Source: an uncultured Chloroflexia bacterium (lineage in GTDB: Bacteria; Chloroflexota; Limnocylindria; Limnocylindrales; CSP1-4). Taken from it: a DNA stretch of 64,000 bases. Within the stretch, counting starts at the first letter, position 1. The number at the start of each line of letters is the position of its first letter. Shown here in pieces: positions 7,174-31,114 of this stretch. The notes under the pieces are model-generated. The model was not told where the DNA came from. It saw only the letters and a list, made by a program, of their open reading frames with translations, and searched no databases. The translations under genes and the position numbers were made by a program. The stretch covers positions 3,350,151-3,414,150 of the forward strand of contig OY969796.1 in the NCBI GenBank assembly GCA_963703155.1, read 5' to 3'.

Positions 7174-8850
7174 TCAGCCCGGCTTCGGCGCGACCCACCC
7201 GGGCAGCTCCGCCGCAAGCGTCGCGAGCGGCAGCGATCCGTGCCCGATCACCGCGTCGTGGAAGGCGCGGAGGTCGAACCGGCTCCCGTCCCGGGCCTCG
7301 AGCTCGCGGCGCAGTCGACGGATCTCGCGCATCCCGGTCATGTAGCACAGCGCCTGCCCGGGCCAGCAGATGTAGCGGTCGGTCTCGATGAGCGCGTCCG
7401 TGTCGGACAGGCCCGTCCGCAGAAGCCAGTCGATCGACTGCTGGCGCGTCCAGCCCAGGCCGTGCATCCCGGAGTCCACGATCAGCCGCGACGCCCGCCA
7501 CGCCTGCGCGTCGAGCATGCCCATCCGCTCGCCCGCATCGCGGTACAGCCCCAGCTCGTCGGCGAGGCGCTCCGCGTACAGGCCCCAGCCCTCGACGTAG
7601 GCACCGCCCACGATGCGCGCGCCCAGCCGCCGGAAGGCGTTGAGGCTCGGGTGCTCCATCTCGAGCGCAATCTGGAAGTGGTGCCCCGGGACGGCCTCGT
7701 GGAACGTCGTGGACGCGAGCTTCGAGAACGTGCGGCTCGGCAGGTCGTAGGTGTTGACGTAGTAGATGCCGTCGCGCGAACCGTCCGTGGAGGGCGGGAA
7801 GTAGTAGGCGAAGGCGACGTCCTTCTCCTTGAACTCCTCGACCGGGCGGACCTCGCAGGACGCCGCCGGGAGCCGGCCGAACATCGTCGGCGCGACGGCC
7901 ATCGCCCGGCCGATGTCCTCGGTGGCGCGGGCGACCAGCTCCTCCCGCGTGGCGGCCCGGTTGACCGGGTCCGCGGCAAGGGCGGCGCGGTAGCCGGCCA
8001 CGTCGTCGCCGAAACCCTCCGCCCGGGCGATCTCGAGGCGCTCCGCGTCGATGGCGGCCAGCTCGTCAAGCCCGATCTGGTGGACGTCGCGCGGGTGGAG
8101 GTCGAGCGTGGTCCATGCGCGGATGGCATGCTGGTAGAGCGCCTCCCCATTGGGCGCCGACGTCAGGCCCGGCACCTCGCGCGAGGCCTCGAGATACGCG
8201 CCCGAGAGCGCCGCGAGGTAGCGGCGGTCGGCGGGGTACACGACATCGCGGACGACGTCGCGGACCTTCTCGCGATCGGCCTCCGACGCCACCTGCGCCA
8301 TGGACGGGACGATGGCCTGTTCGATCGGCATCGAGAGCAGCCGGTTCAGCTGGTCGATGGTCCGCTCGACGACGATCCGCGCCGCCGTGCGGCCGGACGC
8401 CCGCCCCTCGTCGAGGATCCTGATGTAGGCGTCCATGAAGCCGCCGTATGCCTCGAGGCGGGCGAGGAACTTCTCGAGCCGCTCGGGGGTGTTGGCGGGC
8501 TGGAACTGCGCGGTCTGGGCCAGGACCGTCTGGGGGCCCTGCATGTGGTCCACCGCGGCGAGCTCGTGGAAGCCCAGCGCGGCCTCGCGCTCGGCCAGCT
8601 CGGCGACGATCCGCAGCATGTCGCGCGTGATCCGGTCCTCGACGCCCAGGCCCTCGGCCGGAATCGCCAGTGCCTCGTCGGCCGCCCTGCGCGCGATTGC
8701 GATGCGCGCCGCCCGGCCCTCCGGTCCCGGATCGTCGAGGCGGTCGTCGAAGCGGTCGTCGCCGTACATCGTGGCCGTCAGCGGGCTGAGGCGGAGGTAG
8801 GACTCCCAGAAGCGGGCGGCGATCTCGTCGATGGCGGTGGGCTCGGTCAC
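7174..8850 (-). CDS. DUF885-family protein (putative metallopeptidase fold)
   Basis: SPLTATMYGDDRFDDRL N-terminus, FHEAVPGHHFQ, YVEGWGLYAE, WRASRLIVDSGMH and PGQALCY motifs. GTG start at 8850. Confidence 0.9.
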   Translation of the reverse strand: MTEPTAIDEIAARFWESYLRLSPLTATMYGDDRFDDRLDDPGPEGRAARIAIARRAADEALAIPAEGLGVEDRITRDMLRIVAELAEREAALGFHELAAVDHMQGPQTVLAQTAQFQPANTPERLEKFLARLEAYGGFMDAYIRILDEGRASGRTAARIVVERTIDQLNRLLSMPIEQAIVPSMAQVASEADREKVRDVVRDVVYPADRRYLAALSGAYLEASREVPGLTSAPNGEALYQHAIRAWTTLDLHPRDVHQIGLDELAAIDAERLEIARAEGFGDDVAGYRAALAADPVNRAATREELVARATEDIGRAMAVAPTMFGRLPAASCEVRPVEEFKEKDVAFAYYFPPSTDGSRDGIYYVNTYDLPSRTFSKLASTTFHEAVPGHHFQIALEMEHPSLNAFRRLGARIVGGAYVEGWGLYAERLADELGLYRDAGERMGMLDAQAWRASRLIVDSGMHGLGWTRQQSIDWLLRTGLSDTDALIETDRYICWPGQALCYMTGMREIRRLRRELEARDGSRFDLRAFHDAVIGHGSLPLATLAAELPGWVAPKPG

Positions 8851-21709: not shown

Positions 21710-21713
<4 letters not shown>

Positions 21714-22444
21714 GCGGGCTCAACCTCGATCAGCGGTGACTTGGCCTTCACGAGCTGGCCGTTGTCGGCGCAGATGCGCACCACCTTGCCGGCGAGGTCG
21801 CTCTTGATTTCATTGAACAGCTTCATCGCCTCGATCAGGCCGATGATCTGGCCCACCGAGACATGGTCCCCGACAGACACGTACGGCGTGGCGCCGGGCG
21901 ACGGGGCGCCGTAGAAGATCCCGGTGAGCGGCGCGTTCACCGACGGTCGGACCGGGGGCACGGCGGGCGCTGCGACCGGCGCCGGGGCCAGCGCGACGGC
22001 CGCGGCCCCGGAAGCGCCGCCGCCATCGGCGGGCGGCAGGAATGCGGACGTCGCGAGGACGCGCTCCACGGCAGCCGGCGAGCGCACGATGATCGTCGTG
22101 TCGCCCGCGCTGACCTCGAGCTCGGCGAGCTCGCCGCGGTCCAGGATCGCCGCCAGCCGGTCCACCAGGCCCAGCAGCGTGGCGTCGCCAGCATCGGTAG
22201 GCGCAAGGGGGCCGGGCGGCTCACCGGGACTGGACATCAGGTCGCCGTCTCGGGGCCGGGAGCGGCCGCCCGCTGTGGACGTGGACGGGGCCGGCCGAGG
22301 CGGATCCCCGGGCCCGACGGGCACCGGGTCGACGTGGCGGCGGCCGTGGCCGGACCCGTTCGTCGGCGTGGTCGAGCCGGTCTCCGGGGCGTGCTCCGCG
22401 GCGGCCGAGCCGGTGTCGGCGGGGAGGACCGGGTCGTCGCTCAT
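21710..22444 (-). CDS. accB: Acetyl-CoA carboxylase biotin carboxyl carrier protein (biotinylatable)
   Basis: APLTGIFYGAPSP and IEAMKLFNEI with the biotin Lys intact. It has a long low-complexity N-terminus, so the start may lie further downstream (ATG 22237). Confidence 0.88.
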
Positions 22445-23712
22445 GCTTCCCACCGGCGGAAGACCAGCGCCGTGTTCTGGCCGCCGAACCCGAACGAGTT
22501 GGACAGCGCCACCCGCGGGTCCCGTTTCGCCGCCACGTTGGGCGTGAGGTCCAGTCCCGCTGCCGCGTCGTCGGGATCGTCGAGGTTGATGGTGGGCGGC
22601 ACGATCCCGGTGCGCAGCGTCAGGACGGTCACGATCGCCTCCACGGCGCCGGCCGCGCCCAGCGTGTGGCCCAGCATGGACTTGTTGGCGGTCACGGACA
22701 CGTTGCGGGCATGATCGCCGAAGATCGTCCGGATCGCCTCCAGCTCCGCCTTGTCGCCCGGCGGCGTGGACGTGGCATGGGCATTGACGTGGTCCACCTC
22801 GGAGGGGTCGAGGCCGGCCTTGTCGAGCGCTCGGCGCGCCGCGCGGACCGCGCCGATCCCGCCCGGTGCCGGCAGCGTGATGTGCGAGGCGTCGGCCGTG
22901 GCGCCGTAGCCCACCAGCTCCGCGAGCGGGGCGGCGCCGCGCGCCTCGGCATGCTCGAGCGCCTCGAGGACCAGCACACCGCACCCTTCACCCACCACGA
23001 AGCCGTCTCGGGCCTTGTCGAACGGGCGCGAGGCGGCCTCGGGGTCGTCGTTCCGGGTGGACAGCGCCTTCATCGAGGCGAAGCCGCCGACGGTTGCCTC
23101 GTGGATCCCGGCCTCAACGCCGCCGGCGAGCATCAGGTCGGCATCACCCCGGCGGATGGTCTCCCACGCCTCGCCCAGCGCATGGCCGCCGGTGGCGCAG
23201 GCCGACACCGTGGCGAAGTTGGGCCCGAGGGCGCCGGTGGAGATGGCGACCTGCCCGGCGCCGACGTTGCCGATGCCCATGGGGACGAAGAAGGGCGAGA
23301 TCCGGTCGGGCCCGCGCTGGCCCATCACGAGCACGTTGTCGAACAGCGTGTGCACGCCGCCCAGCCCGGAGCCGATGATCACGCCAGCCCGCTCCGCGAG
23401 CTCGTCGTCGAAGCGCTCCGGCAGGCCAGCGTCGCGGACAGCCTGATGCGCCGTCCACACCGCGAACTGGATGTAGCGGTCGATGCGCCGGATCTCCTTG
23501 CGGTCGAGGACCGACGAGGGGTCGAAGCCCTTCGCCTCCGCTGCGAACCGCACGGCGAGGCGCGACGGGTCGAACGCCTGGATCGGCGCCACCCCGCTCC
23601 GACCGGCGACCAGGCCGTCCCACGTGGTCGCCACGTCGTTGCCCAGCGCGGTGATGGCGCCCATCCCGGTCACGACCACCCGCCGGGGCCGCTGGGGCCA
23701 GCTCCAGCTCAT
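22441..23712 (-). CDS. fabF: 3-oxoacyl-ACP synthase II
   Basis: RRVVVTGMG, SACATG (Cys), HATST and KSMLGHTLGAAG, plus SNSFGFGGQN. Confidence 0.95.
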   Translation of the reverse strand: MSWSWPQRPRRVVVTGMGAITALGNDVATTWDGLVAGRSGVAPIQAFDPSRLAVRFAAEAKGFDPSSVLDRKEIRRIDRYIQFAVWTAHQAVRDAGLPERFDDELAERAGVIIGSGLGGVHTLFDNVLVMGQRGPDRISPFFVPMGIGNVGAGQVAISTGALGPNFATVSACATGGHALGEAWETIRRGDADLMLAGGVEAGIHEATVGGFASMKALSTRNDDPEAASRPFDKARDGFVVGEGCGVLVLEALEHAEARGAAPLAELVGYGATADASHITLPAPGGIGAVRAARRALDKAGLDPSEVDHVNAHATSTPPGDKAELEAIRTIFGDHARNVSVTANKSMLGHTLGAAGAVEAIVTVLTLRTGIVPPTINLDDPDDAAAGLDLTPNVAAKRDPRVALSNSFGFGGQNTALVFRRWEA

Positions 23713-24456
23713 CGGACGTGCTTCCCCGTGCGCACCGTGGCTGCACGGTAGACGTCGCCCGGCAGCCCGCGCGCCGAGATGGCGCTCGCCACGGAGAGCG
23801 CGTCGTAGGCGGTCCGGCGGATGACCACGTCCACCTTGCCGTCGGCGATCGTCGCCATCGCCCAGCTCGCGGTGGGATCGCCGTCGAACACGTAGCCGCA
23901 CGACCCGTCGTTGACGATCACCTTCCAGCCGAGGTCGCGGACCTCGGGCACGTGCGTGTGGCCGACGAAGATGACCCGGGCGTCGGTGCCCGCGGCGCGC
24001 TCGTAGATCACCGACGCGTCGAGCGCCTGGTCGAAGCCGCGCGTCTGGGAGCCCGGGGAGGCGTGCACCACCAGCACCAGCGTGTCGTCGGCGGTGCGCA
24101 TGCGGCGCTCGGACGGCAGGCGGCGGAGCCAGTCGAGCTGGTCGTCGCCGAGCTCGTCATGGGCCCACTCGGCGGCCGCGGTGATCACCTCGGGCACGCC
24201 GTCCTGGTACTGCGGGTAGGCGGCGCCGTAGTCGAAGTCGCCGACCGCGATGTCGGTGTTGCCCGACACGATCAGCGCTCCCTCGGACTCGAGGTGCCGC
24301 AGCGCGTCAACGCAGCCGTTGGGATAGCGGGCCGTTGAGGATGAGGTCGCCAGCGACGAGGACCGCGTCGGGCTTCTCGCGGCGGATCTCGGCGGCAACG
24401 GCCTCGAGGGCCGTGAGGTTGCCGTGGATGTCGGACAGGACGGCGATGCGGGTCAT
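23709..24456 (-). pseudogene. Metallophosphoesterase (calcineurin-like, YfcE-type) with an apparent 1-nt frameshift near 24327-24331
   Basis: The frame from ATG 24456 reads MTRIAVLSDIHGNLTALEAV...VAGDLILNGP and then stops. The remaining motifs (GNTD, VHASPGS, GHTH, NDGSCG) are in the next frame. Length is 3n+1. This may be a sequencing error. Confidence 0.8.
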
Positions 24457-25115: not shown

Positions 25116-26483
25116 TCAGGCGCGCTCGGCGGCCGCGAGGAAGGCAGCCGCGCCAACCCGGTCGAGCAGGTTGGTGGTGAAGTGCCCGGCGAGGAACGGC
25201 TCCGAGGCGAGGAGCGCCTGGTGGATCGCCACATTGGTGACCACCCCCTCGATCACGAGCTCTGCGAGGGCGGCCTTGCCGCGGGCGATCGCCGCCTCGC
25301 GGGTCTGGCCCCAGACGATCAGCTTGCCGAGCAGCGAATCGTAGTACGGGGGGATGTCGTAGCCGGTGTAGGCGTGGCTGTCGAAGCGGACGCCGGGGCC
25401 GCCGGGCGCGTTCAGCCGCTCGATGGTGCCGGCGCCGGGCCGGAACTCGTGGGCGGGGTCCTCGGCGTTGATCCGGAACTCGATCGCGTGGCCGTCCTGG
25501 TGCACGTCCGCCTGGGTGAACCCGAGCGGCTCGCCGGCGGCGATGCGGATCTGCGTGGCGACGAGGTCGATGCCCGTGAGCATCTCGGTGACCGGGTGCT
25601 CCACCTGGATCCGGCAGTTGATCTCGATGAAGTAGGCGTTGCCGTCGCCGTCGACCAGGAACTCGAGCGTGCCCACGTTCTCGTACCCGGCCGCGACCAC
25701 CGCCTTCACGGCTCGCTCGGCCAGTTCGCGGCGCCCGGCCGCTGTCATCGCGGGCGAGGGCGACTCCTCGAGGATCTTCTGGTGCCGGCGCTGGATGGAG
25801 CAGTCACGCTCCCAGAGGTGGACGCCATAGCCGAAGCGGTCCACGGCCACCTGGACCTCGACGTGGCGGTTGTCCTCCAGCCAGCGCTCGAGGTACAGCG
25901 CGTCGTCGCCGAACGCGGCGCGCGCCTCGGAGCGGCAGATCGGCAGGACGGCCGCGAGCTCCCGCGCGGAGCGGACCATGCGCATCCCCTTGCCGCCGCC
26001 CCCTGCGGAGGGCTTGACGAGGACCGGGTACCCCACCCGGCCCGCCTCCTCGAGGGCGTGGGCCTCGTCGCCGAGGAGCCCCGATCCGGGGATGGTCGGC
26101 AGGCCGTGGGCGGCGAGGAGGCGGCGGACCTCCTCCTTGGACGCGAACCTCTCGAGCACGGGTGCCGACGGGCCGATGAACGTCAGGCCGTGGGCGCGCA
26201 CTGCCTCGGCGAAGGCGTCGTCCTCGGACAGGAAGCCGTAGCCCGGGTGGATGGCGTCGCAGCCGGTGACCAGCGCGGCGGAGATGATGGCGGGAGCCGA
26301 GAGGTACGAGCGGCGGGCGTCGGCGGGGCCGATGCAGATGGCCTCGTCGGCGAGCAGCGCCGGCAGCGAGGCGCGGTCCGCCTCCGAGTACGCGACGACG
26401 GCCTCGATCCCCAGCGTCCGGCAGGCGCGGAGGATCCGGAGCGCGATCTCGCCCCGGTTGGCGATCAGGACGCGGCTGATCAT
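25116..26483 (-). CDS. accC: Acetyl-CoA carboxylase biotin carboxylase subunit
   Basis: MISRVLIANRGEIALRI, IHPGYGFLSE, GGGGKGM, EINCRIQVEHPVTE and YDSLLGKLI. Confidence 0.96.
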   Translation of the reverse strand: MISRVLIANRGEIALRILRACRTLGIEAVVAYSEADRASLPALLADEAICIGPADARRSYLSAPAIISAALVTGCDAIHPGYGFLSEDDAFAEAVRAHGLTFIGPSAPVLERFASKEEVRRLLAAHGLPTIPGSGLLGDEAHALEEAGRVGYPVLVKPSAGGGGKGMRMVRSARELAAVLPICRSEARAAFGDDALYLERWLEDNRHVEVQVAVDRFGYGVHLWERDCSIQRRHQKILEESPSPAMTAAGRRELAERAVKAVVAAGYENVGTLEFLVDGDGNAYFIEINCRIQVEHPVTEMLTGIDLVATQIRIAAGEPLGFTQADVHQDGHAIEFRINAEDPAHEFRPGAGTIERLNAPGGPGVRFDSHAYTGYDIPPYYDSLLGKLIVWGQTREAAIARGKAALAELVIEGVVTNVAIHQALLASEPFLAGHFTTNLLDRVGAAAFLAAAERA

Positions 26484-26485
26484 GC

Positions 26486-27046
26486 TCAGCCCTCCCCCGC
26501 CCCGTCGGCGCTCGTCGTCTCGGCATCCGGCTCGGGATCGCCCTCGACCAGCGCGATCTCCTCGCCGTACTCGACGCCGTCGCCAGCCTGCGGATACACC
26601 TCGATGACGGTGCCGTCGATCGGTGCGACGACATCGAGCGCGATCCCCAGCAGGTCCACCGTGGCGATGCGGTCCCCGGCGCGGACGCGGGTCCCCGGCG
26701 CGACGCCCGGCTTGAACATGCCAACGGTCGGCGAGAGCGCGGGCTCCCGCGGAGGCCCGCCGCCTGCGTCCTCGATCGGAGCGGCCGGTGCGGAGGCTGC
26801 GGCGCCAGACGGCGTCACGATGGGGGGCGCGGCGCGATGCGGGCGCTCGCGGCGGGGGCCGAGGCCGGCGGGCCGCCGGACACGGACGTGCCAGTCGCCC
26901 TCGCGGATCTCGACCTCGCCGAGGTTCGCGGCGCCCAGCTTCACGACGAGCGCGGGCACGAGCGCGTCGGCGAGGCGGGCGATCCCGGCGTGGTCGGCGG
27001 CGCGCTGGGCGGCGTTGCGGTCCCCGGGTCGGGGCTGGTCGGGCAT
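26486..27046 (-). CDS. BCCP-like protein lacking the biotin-accepting lysine
   Basis: BCCP-type N-terminus, Pro/Ala linker and biotinyl-domain frame (ALSPTVGMF...GDGVEYGEEIALVE). However, it has ATVDLLGIALDV where EAMKxxNEI is expected. Confidence 0.8.
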   Translation of the reverse strand: MPDQPRPGDRNAAQRAADHAGIARLADALVPALVVKLGAANLGEVEIREGDWHVRVRRPAGLGPRRERPHRAAPPIVTPSGAAASAPAAPIEDAGGGPPREPALSPTVGMFKPGVAPGTRVRAGDRIATVDLLGIALDVVAPIDGTVIEVYPQAGDGVEYGEEIALVEGDPEPDAETTSADGAGEG

Positions 27047-27049
27047 CGG

Positions 27050-28090
27050 CTAGACGTCCTCGCGGGCTGGTGGCTCGTCGCGCCGTCCCACCTGGAGCGG
27101 CGCGGGGATGGCTCGCGAACCGGCCTCGAGGAGACCGCGCAGGCGGTCGGCGAAGCCGCTCCGCGGCGGAGCGACGGGCGTGGGGACCTCGGTCACAACC
27201 TCGGTGTAGGCGCCGAGCGAACGGTAGCGGCGATAGCGCTGCTCGACCAGCAGCTCGAGCGGGATGGCCGTCAGGCGGTCCAGCTCGCGCAGCACCGCGG
27301 TCTTGATGCGCCTGCCCGTCTCCTCGTGGTCGGTGTGGGCGCCGCCCTCGGGCTCCGGGATGACGTGGTCGATCACGCCCAGCGCCTGCTGGTCGGCCGC
27401 GCTCATCCGCATGGCCGTGGCCGCAGTCGACGCCTCGTCGGTGGTGCGCCACAGGATGCTGGCGCAGCCCTCGGGCGAGATGACCGCGTAGACGGCGTTC
27501 TCCAGCGCGAGGACCACGTCGCCCACGGCGATCGCGAGCGCCCCGCCGGAGCCCCCCTCTCCGGTGATGACCGTGACGATGGGCGTCCGCAGTCTCGTCA
27601 TCAAGCCGACGGAGCGCGCGATGGCCTCCGCGATGCCGCGCTCCTCGGACTCGGGGCCCGGGTAGGCCCCGGGCACATCCACGAACGTCACGATCGGCAG
27701 GCCGCTGCGCTCCGCGAGCTCCATCACGCGCATCGCCTTGCGGTACCCCTCCGGGTGGGGCATCCCGAAGTTGCGGCGCAGGTTCTCCTCGGTGTCCGCG
27801 CCCTTCTGCTGGCCGACGACCGCCACGCGGTAGGGACCGATGCGCGCGAAGCCGGCCACGACCGCCTCGTCGTCGCCGAACGCCCGGTCACCGTGGAGCT
27901 CGATGACCTCATCGGCCATCACGGCGAGCAGCTCGAGGATCCGCGGGCGGCGCAGGTTGCGTGCGAGCTGGACGCGGGCCCAGACCTCCGCCCTGCGGTC
28001 CGCGGGCGCCGGCTCGGCGGACGCGGATGCCGCGGTGCCGGGCTCAGGCGCCTGGCGCTCCTCGCGCCGGCCCAGGATTCGGTCAACCAC
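27050..28090 (-). CDS. accA: Acetyl-CoA carboxylase carboxyltransferase alpha subunit
   Basis: VELHGDRAFGDDEAVV, RNFGMPHPEGYRKAMR, FVDVPGAYPG, GEGGSGGALA and VISPEGCASILW. Confidence 0.95.
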   Translation of the reverse strand: MVDRILGRREERQAPEPGTAASASAEPAPADRRAEVWARVQLARNLRRPRILELLAVMADEVIELHGDRAFGDDEAVVAGFARIGPYRVAVVGQQKGADTEENLRRNFGMPHPEGYRKAMRVMELAERSGLPIVTFVDVPGAYPGPESEERGIAEAIARSVGLMTRLRTPIVTVITGEGGSGGALAIAVGDVVLALENAVYAVISPEGCASILWRTTDEASTAATAMRMSAADQQALGVIDHVIPEPEGGAHTDHEETGRRIKTAVLRELDRLTAIPLELLVEQRYRRYRSLGAYTEVVTEVPTPVAPPRSGFADRLRGLLEAGSRAIPAPLQVGRRDEPPAREDV

Positions 28091-28934
28091 GAGGGGCCTC
28101 CGTCGAACTCGGGGCGAGGTAGCGGAGCAGCGCGGCAACCTCTCGTCGGAGATCCGCGCGGGCCACGACGCGGTCGACGAAGCCGTGGCGGAACAGGAAC
28201 TCGGCGCGCTGGAACCCGGGCGGCAGCTCCTGGCCAATCGTCCCGGCACCCACCCTGGCGCCCGCGAACCCGATCAACGCGTTGGGCTCGGCGAGGTTCA
28301 CGTCGCCCATCGCGGCGTAGCTCGCGAACACGCCGCCCGTGGTCGGGTCGCTCATCACCGACACGTACGGGACGTGGGCCGCGCGCAGCCGCTCGAGAGC
28401 GGCCATGGTCTTGGCGAGCTGCATCAGGGCCAGCGTCCCCTCCTGCATCCGCGCCCCGCCCGACGCCGAGACGATGATCAGCGGCACGCGGGAGGCGAGC
28501 GCGCCCTCTGCGGCGCGGGCGACCTTCTCGCCCACCACGGCGCCCATCGACCCGCCCATGAACCCGAAGTCCATGACCAGGATCGCGACGCGCTGGTCCT
28601 CGATGCGCCCGTAGCCCCAGACGGCGGCGTCACGGAGGCCGGTGGCGAGCTGTGCAGCGGCCAGGCGGTCGGGGTACGCCTTCTGGTCCACGAACCCGAG
28701 CGGGTCCTTGGACGTGAGGCCCGGATCGCGCTCCTCGAACGAGCCCGGGTCCAGCAGCTGCCCGAGGCGGAGCGCGGACGTGAGCCGGAAGTGGTGGCCG
28801 CACGACGGGCAGACGTGGAGCGTCTTCTCGAGCGCCTTGTTGAACAGCTGCTCGGAGCACGACGGGCAGCGCGTCCACAGCTTGTCCGGGACGGCCTCGT
28901 GACGGGAGCGGAAGCCCGGGAACTTGACGGGCAT
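28083..28934 (-). CDS. accD: Acetyl-CoA carboxylase carboxyltransferase beta subunit
   Basis: N-terminal C4 zinc finger (CPSC...CPSC), DFGFMGGSMG, SASGGARMQEG, PTTGGVFAS and GFAGARV. Confidence 0.96.
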   Translation of the reverse strand: MPVKFPGFRSRHEAVPDKLWTRCPSCSEQLFNKALEKTLHVCPSCGHHFRLTSALRLGQLLDPGSFEERDPGLTSKDPLGFVDQKAYPDRLAAAQLATGLRDAAVWGYGRIEDQRVAILVMDFGFMGGSMGAVVGEKVARAAEGALASRVPLIIVSASGGARMQEGTLALMQLAKTMAALERLRAAHVPYVSVMSDPTTGGVFASYAAMGDVNLAEPNALIGFAGARVGAGTIGQELPPGFQRAEFLFRHGFVDRVVARADLRREVAALLRYLAPSSTEAPRG

Positions 28935-29590
28935 CAGGCGGGCCCTCCGGGGATGCCCGCGGCCAGGTCGGCGAGGTCCGCGATGCGGCGGGCGTGGGCG
29001 GCCCTCGCAGCGCGGCTCATGGGTGCGCCGGCGGGACGAGAGGCGCGCCAGGCCACCCAGGCCACGCCCACGAGCGAGATGGCGGCTGAGGTGATCGCGC
29101 CGCCCACGAGGAGCGGCCGGGCCGGGGATCGGACGCCGTTGGCGCGGGCGACGGCCGCCTCGTCGGACGGGTCGAGCTGGCCGGCGAGGACCGCTGCGAG
29201 CAGCGCGTCGTCCGCCGGGATGCCAGCAGCGGGGAACGGGATGAGGTCGCCGGAGCGGTCCGCGACGTCAGCTCGACCGCGCAGCTCGCCTGCAGCGAGG
29301 TCGGCGATCTCGGCGGCCAGCCGCTCCTCGAACCGGAAGGACGGGTGGGCGCGGAGCAGCGTCGACCGGAGGACCGCGACGGCATGGCGCAAGGACGGAT
29401 CGAGTGCGCCCTGCTCGATGGCGGTCGCCCACCCCTCGAGGGCCCGCACACCGTCGGCGGTCCTCCCCGTCGTCATCGACGGCATCGGCGCCGCCCGGCG
29501 CTCGGCCTGCGCCAGCAGGGTGTCGAGATACTGGTCGGTCACCAGCGCATCGACCGACTCCTCGTGGTCCCGCGCTCGTGCCCGCCTCAC
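28934..29590 (-). CDS. Hypothetical protein, possible membrane-anchored anti-sigma factor
   Basis: Overlaps the ECF sigma stop codon (GTGA) and the accD start (TGATG). It has one C-terminal TM helix. The function is inferred from position only. Confidence 0.5.
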   Translation of the reverse strand: MRRARARDHEESVDALVTDQYLDTLLAQAERRAAPMPSMTTGRTADGVRALEGWATAIEQGALDPSLRHAVAVLRSTLLRAHPSFRFEERLAAEIADLAAGELRGRADVADRSGDLIPFPAAGIPADDALLAAVLAGQLDPSDEAAVARANGVRSPARPLLVGGAITSAAISLVGVAWVAWRASRPAGAPMSRAARAAHARRIADLADLAAGIPGGPA

Positions 29591-30228
29591 CGGCGCGACC
29601 CCCGGTCGTGGCCCAGCTCGTGCGCGACGCTCCCGAGGGCCCGGTGGATGAGCACCCGGACCGCGCCCTCGGAGCGGCCCAGGATGCCGGCGATCTCGGC
29701 TGTGCTCATCTCGTCGACGAACCGCAGCAGGAGCGCCCGGCGCCGATCGTCCGGGAGGTCGCGGACGACCCGCATCGCCGCGGCGGCCTCGTCGCGCGTC
29801 ACGGCGTCGCCCTCGAGGTCCACGCCGTCCGCGATGGTCAGCCCGGTGTCCAGCACCGCGTCGAGCGAGGAGGCGGGCTTGCGCCGACGCGAGCGCCGCT
29901 CGTTGGCGACCACGTTGCGCGCGATGCGGAACAGCCAGACGCGGAATGTGCTCGCCTCGGGGCCGTCCTCGGGCCGCGCGAGCTCGCGGAACCGCGGCAG
30001 GGCCGCCAGCGCGCGGAGGAAGGTCCGCTCCGTGGCGTCCTCCGCCGCGTGGTGGTCGGCGAGCTCGTAGAGGGCGTAGCTGTACACCTGGGCGAGGTAC
30101 TTCCGGTAGAGGGCGTCGAACTTGGCGGGATCCCGGCGCGCCGCCTCGACGAGCGGCCGGTCACGGTCGAGCGCGACGACGACGCGCTCCGCCGCCGGCT
30201 CGGCTGTTCCAAACCCCAGTCGCGCCAT
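29587..30228 (-). CDS. ECF-type RNA polymerase sigma-70 factor
   Basis: FDALYRKY, AEDATERTFLRA, FRVWLFRIARN and region 4 (MSTAEIAGILGRSEGAVRVLIHRA). Confidence 0.93.
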   Translation of the reverse strand: MARLGFGTAEPAAERVVVALDRDRPLVEAARRDPAKFDALYRKYLAQVYSYALYELADHHAAEDATERTFLRALAALPRFRELARPEDGPEASTFRVWLFRIARNVVANERRSRRRKPASSLDAVLDTGLTIADGVDLEGDAVTRDEAAAAMRVVRDLPDDRRRALLLRFVDEMSTAEIAGILGRSEGAVRVLIHRALGSVAHELGHDRGSRR

Positions 30229-30232
30229 CGCG

Positions 30233-31114
30233 TTACACCCGCGCCGCGAGTCGGACGTGGACGACCTCGCCCGCGTGGACCGCGTGCTGGTCGCCACCGC
30301 CGACGGGCGACACCACGAGCGCGCCGCTGCTCCCGTCGACGCCGTCGACGGTCACGTCCTCGCCGGCACCGGCACCGTGGCCATCCAGCCGGACCACCCG
30401 CCCGGTCAGCGCCTGGCGCGTGGTCCACGTCCCCACATCGAAGAAGCCCGCCCGAAGGGCCTCGAGCCTCGTCTCGAGGTAGCCCAGGAATGCCGCCAGC
30501 AGCGCGTCGATGTCGATCGGCCGCCCGGCGGAGGCTTCCCGGAGGCTGGTCATCGTCCCGGCGAGCGTGGGCGGAAAGTCGGCCGCCGACCAGTCGGCGT
30601 TGATCCCGATCCCGACGACGGCCCGAGGGTCCGCCGTGCCCAGGCCGTCGGTCTCGCCCAGCACGCCCGCCACCTTGCGCAGGTCGAGCGGCGCCGCCAG
30701 GCGTCGTGCCGCCTCCTCGGCGGCAAGGACCCCGGTGAGCAGCGCGTGAGGACCGGCCACCTCGAATACGAGGTCGTTCGGCCACTTGAGCCGGATCGCG
30801 CCCTCGGGCAGCCCAGCGACCTCCTCTCCCGCATCGCACATCGCCAGGGACACGGCTGCGCCCAGCCGCCAGACCTTGTCGGGCGGCAGCCATGTGGGGA
30901 GGAAGCCGCACGAGAGCATCAGCGAGGCGCCGGGCGGCGACACCCAGGCGCGGCCTGCGCGCCCGCGGCCCGCGGTCTGCTCACGGGCGACCGCGACCGC
31001 GACCTCGGGCGTGCCGTCGGCCAGCCAGCCGCGGACGACGTCGTTCGTGGACTCGACCGTATCGAAGCGCTCGAGCCTGCTGAGCGTGGCGATGACCGAT
31101 TCGGGGTCCGTCAC
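30233..31114 (-). CDS. birA: Biotin-[acetyl-CoA-carboxylase] ligase, no N-terminal HTH (class I)
   Basis: STND, QTAGRGRAGRAW, KWPNDL, KVAGVL and GIGIN. Confidence 0.93.
   Translation of the reverse strand: MTDPESVIATLSRLERFDTVESTNDVVRGWLADGTPEVAVAVAREQTAGRGRAGRAWVSPPGASLMLSCGFLPTWLPPDKVWRLGAAVSLAMCDAGEEVAGLPEGAIRLKWPNDLVFEVAGPHALLTGVLAAEEAARRLAAPLDLRKVAGVLGETDGLGTADPRAVVGIGINADWSAADFPPTLAGTMTSLREASAGRPIDIDALLAAFLGYLETRLEALRAGFFDVGTWTTRQALTGRVVRLDGHGAGAGEDVTVDGVDGSSGALVVSPVGGGDQHAVHAGEVVHVRLAARV

Follow-up and report, generated by a model that had tools for sequence, protein, structure and literature searches.

The gene considered here lies in a 64,000-nucleotide stretch of contig OY969796.1 from an uncultured bacterium of the Limnocylindrales (the whole of this stretch is referred to as the window), where it occupies positions 26486-27046 between accA and accC, two genes of acetyl-CoA carboxylase (ACC), the enzyme that catalyses the committed step of fatty-acid synthesis and is a target of both antibiotics and herbicides. 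Its 186-residue product is a paralogue of BCCP (biotin carboxyl carrier protein, or AccB) without the biotinyl lysine and without the thumb, and is called pBCCP in what follows. As the glycine that replaces the lysine is conserved, the gene is under purifying selection and a true AccB is constantly present, the best reading of pBCCP is that of a non-catalytic ACC subunit similar to the BADC proteins of plants. We lean, with some reserve, towards a role in assembly, docking or regulation of the enzyme, in which anchoring and carrying would be split between pBCCP and AccB. A BADC-like bacterial subunit of independent origin had been proposed in a sequence-only reading of the window; the subunit itself remains the best reading, with the lysine loss conserved and AccB co-occurring, whilst its independent origin is not supported by the trees described below.

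Architecture of pBCCP and its altered hairpin

pBCCP, which like all the window genes located here is encoded on the minus strand, was delimited as an open reading frame (ORF) ending in a TGA stop at 26486-26488 and was characterised by profile matches, an AlphaFold 2 (AF2) model and Foldseek. Residues 102-165 match the Pfam domain Biotin_lipoyl (28.6 bits, cut-off 22.1), and residues 33-168 align to positions 9-155 of the 156 of the NCBIfam BCCP profile TIGR00531, with a score of 32.5 bits against a cut-off of 115.2. A profile built from the pBCCP family finds full-length E. coli BCCP (PDB 4HR7_B) at E = 3.5e-14 with both domains covered. Direct BLASTP of pBCCP against the AccB of the same window matches the N-terminal domain only (E = 0.001), and therefore profile and structure methods are needed to compare the two. 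With only 22 sequences AF2 produced a poor model (predicted local distance difference test, pLDDT, of 56.6), thus an alignment of 120 sequences was used instead, giving a mean pLDDT of 83.8 and values of 97-98 over the barrel (residues 100-169). Foldseek places this barrel on 1BDO with a TM-score (TMt) of 0.78 and a root-mean-square deviation (rmsd) of 1.8 A, and on the P. horikoshii BCCP 2EJF_C with TMt 0.91 and rmsd 1.1 A. The layout predicted by the model is that of a BCCP, an N-terminal BCCP domain, a Pro/Ala linker and a barrel-sandwich fold, and the BCCP layout that had been noticed from the letters of the gene is borne out by the TIGR00531 alignment, by the match to 4HR7_B and by AF2.

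The N-terminal domain (residues 9-58; 26873-27022) consists of a long helix at 12-40 and a beta-hairpin at 44-49/52-57, has its counterpart at about residues 9-40 of E. coli BCCP in the alignment, and carries the BCCP-type assembly motif LGEVEIREGDWHVRVRR, in which W52, R55 and R57 are near-invariant. It is followed by a Pro/Ala/Arg-rich linker (residues 59-102; 26741-26872) that is variable in both length and sequence and is modelled as disordered (pLDDT 54-58), and then by the biotinyl-type beta-barrel domain (residues 103-168; 26543-26740; pLDDT 97-98), in which the ancestral SPxVG and VEYG motifs are present.

It is in the hairpin of the barrel that pBCCP departs from a carrier. The codons GTG GAC CTG CTG GGG ATC (26642-26659) encode V130-D-L-L-G134-I in place of (I/V)-E-A-M-K-(L/M), with the GGG codon of G134 at 26645-26647. 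Both the hairpin string ATVDLLGIALDV and the ending GDGVEYGEE that had been read from the gene are present, and the replacement of the acceptor lysine by glycine is confirmed by alignment, as G134 falls in the column where the true AccB, like 58 AccBs taken from other phyla, has its biotinyl lysine. A further feature, which the sequence-only reading did not contain, is the deletion of the thumb, the insert between strands 2 and 3 that is a feature of ACC-type BCCPs: eight residues are missing (VGMF--------KPGVAPG aligned with VGTFYRTPSPDAKAFIEVG), and with them the conserved Y, P and F of the thumb. Among 120 diverse members of the family the barrel has no conserved lysine, with no position at which more than 6% of sequences have one. 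The lack of a lysine in the hairpin, of a conserved lysine in the domain and of the thumb predicts that pBCCP is unable to accept biotin at the canonical site.

Set beside canonical AccB (TIGR00531; E. coli AccB, PDB 1BDO and 4HR7), pBCCP has the same domain order and fold, the N-domain motif LxELEVxxGxxxVRxxR, SPxVG and VEYG, and a gene directly upstream of accC, the arrangement of the widespread accBC operon, but it has no EAMK and no thumb, scores below the family cut-off and bears an extra N-terminal helix extension of ~25 residues. Public databases label the family 'acetyl-CoA carboxylase biotin carboxyl carrier protein', and this name is misleading.

The gene is closely packed with its neighbours. 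The start of pBCCP is 3 nt past the stop of accA (TAG-CCG-ATG), its own end is separated by 2 nt from the ATG of accC (TGA-GC-ATG), and accD and accA overlap by 8 nt, with the GTG start of accA lying over the accD stop. The Shine-Dalgarno sequence of accC, GGGGGAGGG, falls within the last four codons of pBCCP (26486-26500), and because of this overlap the conserved C-terminal 'AGEG' of pBCCP is probably conserved at the nucleotide level rather than as a feature of the protein. As read from the junctions, accD-accA-pBCCP-accC is one tightly coupled message in which translation is coupled from gene to gene.

Conservation of pBCCP and the motifs of the co-occurring AccB

The loss of the lysine is a property of a large family. 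A search of 5.8 billion proteins returned 528 relatives, and in 120/120 of the matches listed there is a glycine at the lysine column together with the motif VDLLGI. When 1.84 billion cluster representatives were searched with a profile, 478 matched at E <= 1e-10; amongst the 150 best of these 143 have the glycine, the remaining seven being fragments or frame-shifted calls. Within a species-level genome collection a relative of pBCCP is found in 218 genomes, the best matches all being Chloroflexota labelled Limnocylindria or Limnocylindrales. Some ~95 Limnocylindria loci were fetched, and these retain the order birA ... accD-accA-pBCCP-accC-fabZ-metallophosphoesterase-fabF-accB-fabH, with glycine in place of lysine in 93/93 aligned copies of pBCCP. 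Wherever a locus extends far enough to reach accB, it has a true AccB that reads LIEAMKL. An alignment of orthologues had been suggested as a check on the loss of the lysine, and the outcome is that the MK motif is not kept by them.

The hairpin is not merely free of lysine, it is held constant, as L133 and G134 are invariant in the 120 diverse members and D131 is found in 108/120. When the window gene is compared with six relatives by the Nei-Gojobori method, the ratio of non-synonymous to synonymous substitution rates (dN/dS) comes to 0.17-0.27 over the gene as a whole, to 0.03-0.28 over the N-domain, to 0.04-0.30 over the barrel and to 0.16-0.43 over the linker. The values for the true AccB span the same range, and the linker alone is relaxed in pBCCP. 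Both domains of pBCCP and its dead hairpin are thus under strong purifying selection, as strong as that on the true AccB. There is also a weak sign of transcription, a 209-nt contig from a public run labelled as RNA that is identical to 26847-27053 and runs across the accA/pBCCP junction; nearly all other matches in sequencing runs are to DNA metagenomes, with those in RNA-labelled runs being short contigs that come mostly from relatives.

The true accB that had been placed 4 kb downstream, between fabF and fabH and with the motif EAMKLFNEI, is indeed there (21710-22444; 244 residues; 4.0 kb downstream of pBCCP), it is joined to both neighbours by ATGA overlaps, and it and pBCCP are the only two BCCP-family ORFs within the window. 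Its hairpin, LIEAMKLFNEI, and its thumb are those of a carrier and are kept in the AccBs of the class, and it scores 101.6 bits against TIGR00531, just under the cut-off of 115.2. Ahead of its BCCP N-domain there is a low-complexity N-terminal extension of ~65 residues. In the window copy SPxVG has become APLTG and VEYG has become VKAK, and these are the same two motifs that pBCCP retains.

This pattern was examined over the 43 alignment columns whose conservation reaches at least 85% among the 58 AccBs from other phyla. Seven of these columns are retained only in the true AccB of Limnocylindria, including the A and K of the hairpin and the Y, P and F of the thumb, and five are retained only in pBCCP, namely S105 and V108 of SPxVG and E159, Y160 and G161 of VEYG. 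All of the true AccBs examined from Limnocylindria (27/27) have APLTG and V[KR]A[KR] at the two sites. The window pBCCP has a median score of 41 bits against the ordinary AccBs of other phyla and of 27 bits against the clade formed by the AccBs of its own class. Complementary retention of ancestral motifs is the pattern expected from a split of the functions of one BCCP, and by their sequences pBCCP and the true AccB look like a subfunctionalised pair. The same comparison suggests that pBCCP is probably not a simple add-on to the enzyme, and that the work is shared out between two partners, both of them obligate. One contig assigned to the bin Candidatus Limnocylindrales SMAG_U13189 has an accB-accC pair of the ordinary kind (EAMKL), whose AccB clusters with those of Acidobacteriota; the contig is probably mis-binned and does not represent a second system of the class.

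Known counterparts, proposed role and origin

The closest parallel comes from plants and algae. BADCs (biotin attachment domain-containing proteins; BADC1-3 in Arabidopsis) are non-catalytic subunits of the plastid heteromeric ACCase and have been described as 'unique to the plant htACCase' (PMC11926652); they bind biotin carboxylase (BC) and BCCP and aid the assembly of the BC-BCCP subcomplex. Their first descriptions (Salie 2016 and Keereetaweep 2018, cited in PMC11926652) had them as inhibitors. The comparison with pBCCP was made on database sequences only. Both proteins are derived from BCCP, in both an N-terminal segment is followed by a linker and then by a biotinyl-type barrel, and both co-occur with a functional BCCP. 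In the hairpin of BADC, which reads DQFG in 91 clusters and HQLG in 17 (108/120 clusters), the lysine has become glycine, the glutamate D (or H) and the methionine L or F, giving D-x-(L/F)-G, to be compared with VD(L/V/M)LG in pBCCP, and in both proteins the last valine is followed by xYG. They differ in that identity is 29% over 69 residues, in that the thumb-length insert is kept in BADC and deleted in pBCCP, and in that BADC is nuclear-encoded and plastid-targeted whereas pBCCP is a bacterial operon gene between accA and accC. The interactions and effects of BADC have been measured, whilst pBCCP is known here from its sequence and a model.

Lysine-less AccBs are also found in other bacteria. 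In Fervidibacteria/Armatimonadota the hairpin is D(A/S/T)LG in 39/39 clusters, with the cultured Fervidibacter sacchari included, and these proteins are the best match to pBCCP outside its own family (58-59 bits). They share with pBCCP the GDWRV of the N-domain hairpin and a gene near accC, but are only 28-31% identical to it, have a thumb shortened by just 2 residues, and have a small hydrophobic ORF before accC. At one Candidatus Fervidibacter sp. locus (L133) the lysine-less AccB (7974-8450 of that locus; IDALGV) is followed by an ORF of 117 residues (8452-8805) and then by accC, and this ORF, which has a hydrophobic N-terminus, has no Pfam match. In Dictyobacter aurantiacus S27 (Ktedonobacteria; locus L121, 7926-8441) the hairpin is IQSLNV with asparagine at the lysine position, and unlike pBCCP the gene has no accC nearby, the order being pepP-efp-accB'-xseA. 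Neither the lysine-less AccBs of Fervidibacteria nor that of Dictyobacter was found in the literature searched, and no description of a bacterial lysine-less BCCP subunit was found in the literature searches, which did not cover Conrado 2024 on the evolution of ACC regulatory subunits.

Small non-catalytic partners of carboxylases are known that are not related to BCCP. AccE (epsilon) of the actinobacterial acyl-CoA carboxylases, PII/GlnB on BCCP and MSMEG_0435-0436 of the mycobacterial LCC complex tune the assembly or activity of their carboxylases (PMC11926652, PMC11160672, PMC13012033) and resemble pBCCP in this respect, but they are not BCCP homologues and their fold and origin are unrelated. 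MSMEG_0435-0436 was considered as an analogue of pBCCP and rejected, as these are KipA/KipI-type proteins and not BCCP-like.

How might a dead carrier serve the enzyme? In C. aurantiacus BC1 the N-terminal strands of BCCP form an eight-stranded barrel that joins two BC dimers (PMC11077971), and in the tubes of E. coli ACC a barrel of BCCP N-termini has been modelled in the lumen with the biotinyl domain parked on a non-catalytic BC/AccD site (PMC11160672). By a similar arrangement the N-domain hairpin of pBCCP could join with the N-domains of the true AccB in a mixed BCCP beta-barrel that tethers the carriers to biotin carboxylase, and the pBCCP barrel, with its ancestral SPxVG and VEYG surface as the putative docking face, could take the place on BC or AccD at which a BCCP docks or parks. 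The mobile, swinging biotin arm would then be the true AccB, the two jobs of the ancestral BCCP, anchoring or assembly and the carrying of biotin, would be divided over two proteins, and pBCCP would set the number of productive carriers per complex. Such a model of pBCCP as an anchor would agree, by analogy, with the 'glue' view of plant BADCs.

There are several points that weigh against this proposal. The contacts of pBCCP with AccC, AccB and AccD are hypothetical, the structure modelled being that of a single chain, and both the three-dimensional site and the partner of the VEYG/SPxVG surface are putative. Carboxylases other than ACC, encoded outside the window, may also make use of either protein. 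The evidence for transcription is weak, as the RNA support is thin and the type of the run was guessed. A pure anchoring role leaves the strongly conserved dead hairpin unexplained. The invariance of the D-x-L-G tip suggests that it still docks specifically, and docking at the mouth of the BC or carboxyltransferase active site, or on the ligase, could equally be a form of inhibition.

It is therefore worth considering that pBCCP is a dispensable brake, which would contend with holo-AccB for the sites that BCCP takes up on biotin carboxylase, and would lower the activity of ACC without being needed for assembly. The retention of a BC-binding type of N-domain and a carrier-like barrel with no biotin would suit such a competitor, the tip of the hairpin is the most conserved part of pBCCP as would be expected of a plug for a catalytic site, and it was as inhibitors that the plant BADCs were originally described (PMC11926652). 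Brakes, however, are usually regulated separately and lost sporadically, whereas pBCCP is coupled between accA and accC in every locus examined, and the absence from the true AccB of ancestral motifs that pBCCP alone keeps suggests dependence rather than competition. A brake is thus considered unlikely, although it deserves to be taken seriously.

A role in biotin homeostasis or in expression, with pBCCP as a pseudo-substrate of the co-clustered ligase or as an autoregulator of the acc operon, is less probable again. birA is at the head of the same conserved cluster, and pBCCP keeps an acidic residue in the hairpin (D131, where BCCP has E) as well as the E of VEYG, for which the true AccB has K. 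In the BCCP of E. coli, E119 and E147 are important for recognition by BirA, and nothing on E147K/E119K was found in the literature searched. The regulation of acc expression by the N-terminus of E. coli AccB has been reviewed (PMC11160672). No DNA- or RNA-binding feature was found in pBCCP, however, and as no helix-turn-helix (HTH) domain is detected by Pfam in the biotin-protein ligase there is no apparent repressor switch, whilst a subunit is the better fit for a gene that is coupled stoichiometrically to the catalytic ones.

Exaptation of the carrier fold as an adaptor unrelated to ACC, with the position in the operon a historical relic, is very improbable. Other lysine-less BCCPs do occur away from accC, as in the pepP-efp-accB'-xseA arrangement of Dictyobacter, and barrel-sandwich hybrid domains are widely reused, with CphZ, BesA and AstE-type proteins among the Foldseek matches, but the accA-pBCCP-accC arrangement and its coupling are invariant in Limnocylindria and by dN/dS no part of the protein is as constrained as the BCCP-specific N-domain. 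A decaying pseudogene, a sequencing error or a strain-specific mutation of the operon accB, to which the score far under the BCCP equivalog cut-off might have pointed, is ruled out by conservation: the frame is intact in >200 species, dN/dS is low, the glycine is invariant, AF2 gives a confident model and conservation is higher in the dead hairpin than elsewhere in pBCCP.

The trees bear on where pBCCP came from. The pBCCPs of Limnocylindria form one clade (SH-aLRT 99-100) and their true AccBs another (100). In a free, quick maximum-likelihood tree with the hairpin columns removed all lysine-less proteins are weakly grouped (SH-aLRT 74), but with stems of 2.2-2.9 substitutions per site this grouping is prone to long-branch attraction. 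A tree constrained to place BADC with a cyanobacterial AccB has a log-likelihood (lnL) 22 units above that of the free tree (p-value of the approximately unbiased test, p-AU, 0.78), and one that places pBCCP with the AccB of Limnocylindria is 18 units above it (p-AU 0.77). As the free tree is outscored by both constrained trees, neither of which is rejected, no statement on the origin of pBCCP is justified, and the trees are compatible with duplication within the lineage, with an old bacterial lysine-less clade or with a link to BADC. In these trees and in the scores, where pBCCP reaches 31 bits against BADC in comparison with its median of 41 against ordinary AccBs, there is no positive evidence that BADC descends from the pBCCP family. 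The lysine-less proteins of Fervidibacteria and Dictyobacter may belong to one old clade or be the products of parallel losses.

The surrounding cluster and the meaning of a biotin-less BCCP

The lipid-synthesis cluster to which pBCCP belongs runs in the order birA, an extracytoplasmic function (ECF) sigma factor, a 218-residue ORF, accD, accA, pBCCP, accC, fabZ, a metallophosphoesterase, fabF, accB, fabH and fabG. accC (25116-26483), identified by profile match and junction, encodes a biotin carboxylase of 455 residues that is translationally coupled to pBCCP. accD (28083-28934) encodes the carboxyltransferase beta subunit of 283 residues with a zinc ribbon, and accA (27050-28090) the alpha subunit of 346 residues, the last codons of which (27050-27065) hold an AGGA Shine-Dalgarno sequence for pBCCP. 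AccA has a short N-terminus, as its match to the accA profile starts only at position 56 and ~22 residues of the usual N-terminal helices are missing, helices by which the rings of the ACC tube are connected in E. coli. At its other end AccA carries a C-terminal tail of 49 residues with the motifs DRLRxL and RDxPPARE.V, which are conserved in 28 Limnocylindria.

The birA-type biotin-protein ligase (30233-31114) forms the conserved head of the cluster and, together with the ECF sigma factor and the 218-residue ORF (28934-31114 for the three), lies directly upstream of accD in every related locus long enough. Profile scans found no family match for the 218-residue ORF, which is possibly an anti-sigma factor. 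Between fabZ and fabF is a gene for a calcineurin-like metallophosphoesterase (23709-24398) that has a 4-nt overlap onto fabF and a position conserved across the class.

The assembly of the four-subunit bacterial ACC is still being worked out (PMC11160672), and in plants it is disputed whether BADCs act as brake or glue, even as they have become a target for raising seed oil (PMC11926652). According to the literature searched, biotin-less BCCP-like subunits have so far been known from plastids only. By its sequence pBCCP appears to be a bacterial, operon-encoded and thumb-less counterpart of plant BADC with signs of subfunctionalisation, and as it is small, is found in hundreds of species and has a relative in the cultured Fervidibacter sacchari, it would be a system simple to express that could settle what effect a dead carrier has on heteromeric ACC. 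From the motifs that each of the two paralogues has lost in complement to the other, it would further be possible to tell the BCCP surfaces used in anchoring from those used in catalysis. For the Limnocylindria, a class of Chloroflexota from soil and freshwater in which pBCCP is kept class-wide between accA and accC, it can be put forward tentatively, as a possibility that is still some way from being probable, that the heteromeric ACC is an obligate five-subunit enzyme in which BCCP has been subfunctionalised into an anchor (pBCCP) and a carrier (AccB). The same D-x-(L/F)-G solution would then have been reached or inherited in Fervidibacteria and in the BADCs of plastids, and a biotin-less twin of BCCP may be a recurrent design element of ACC rather than a peculiarity of plants.
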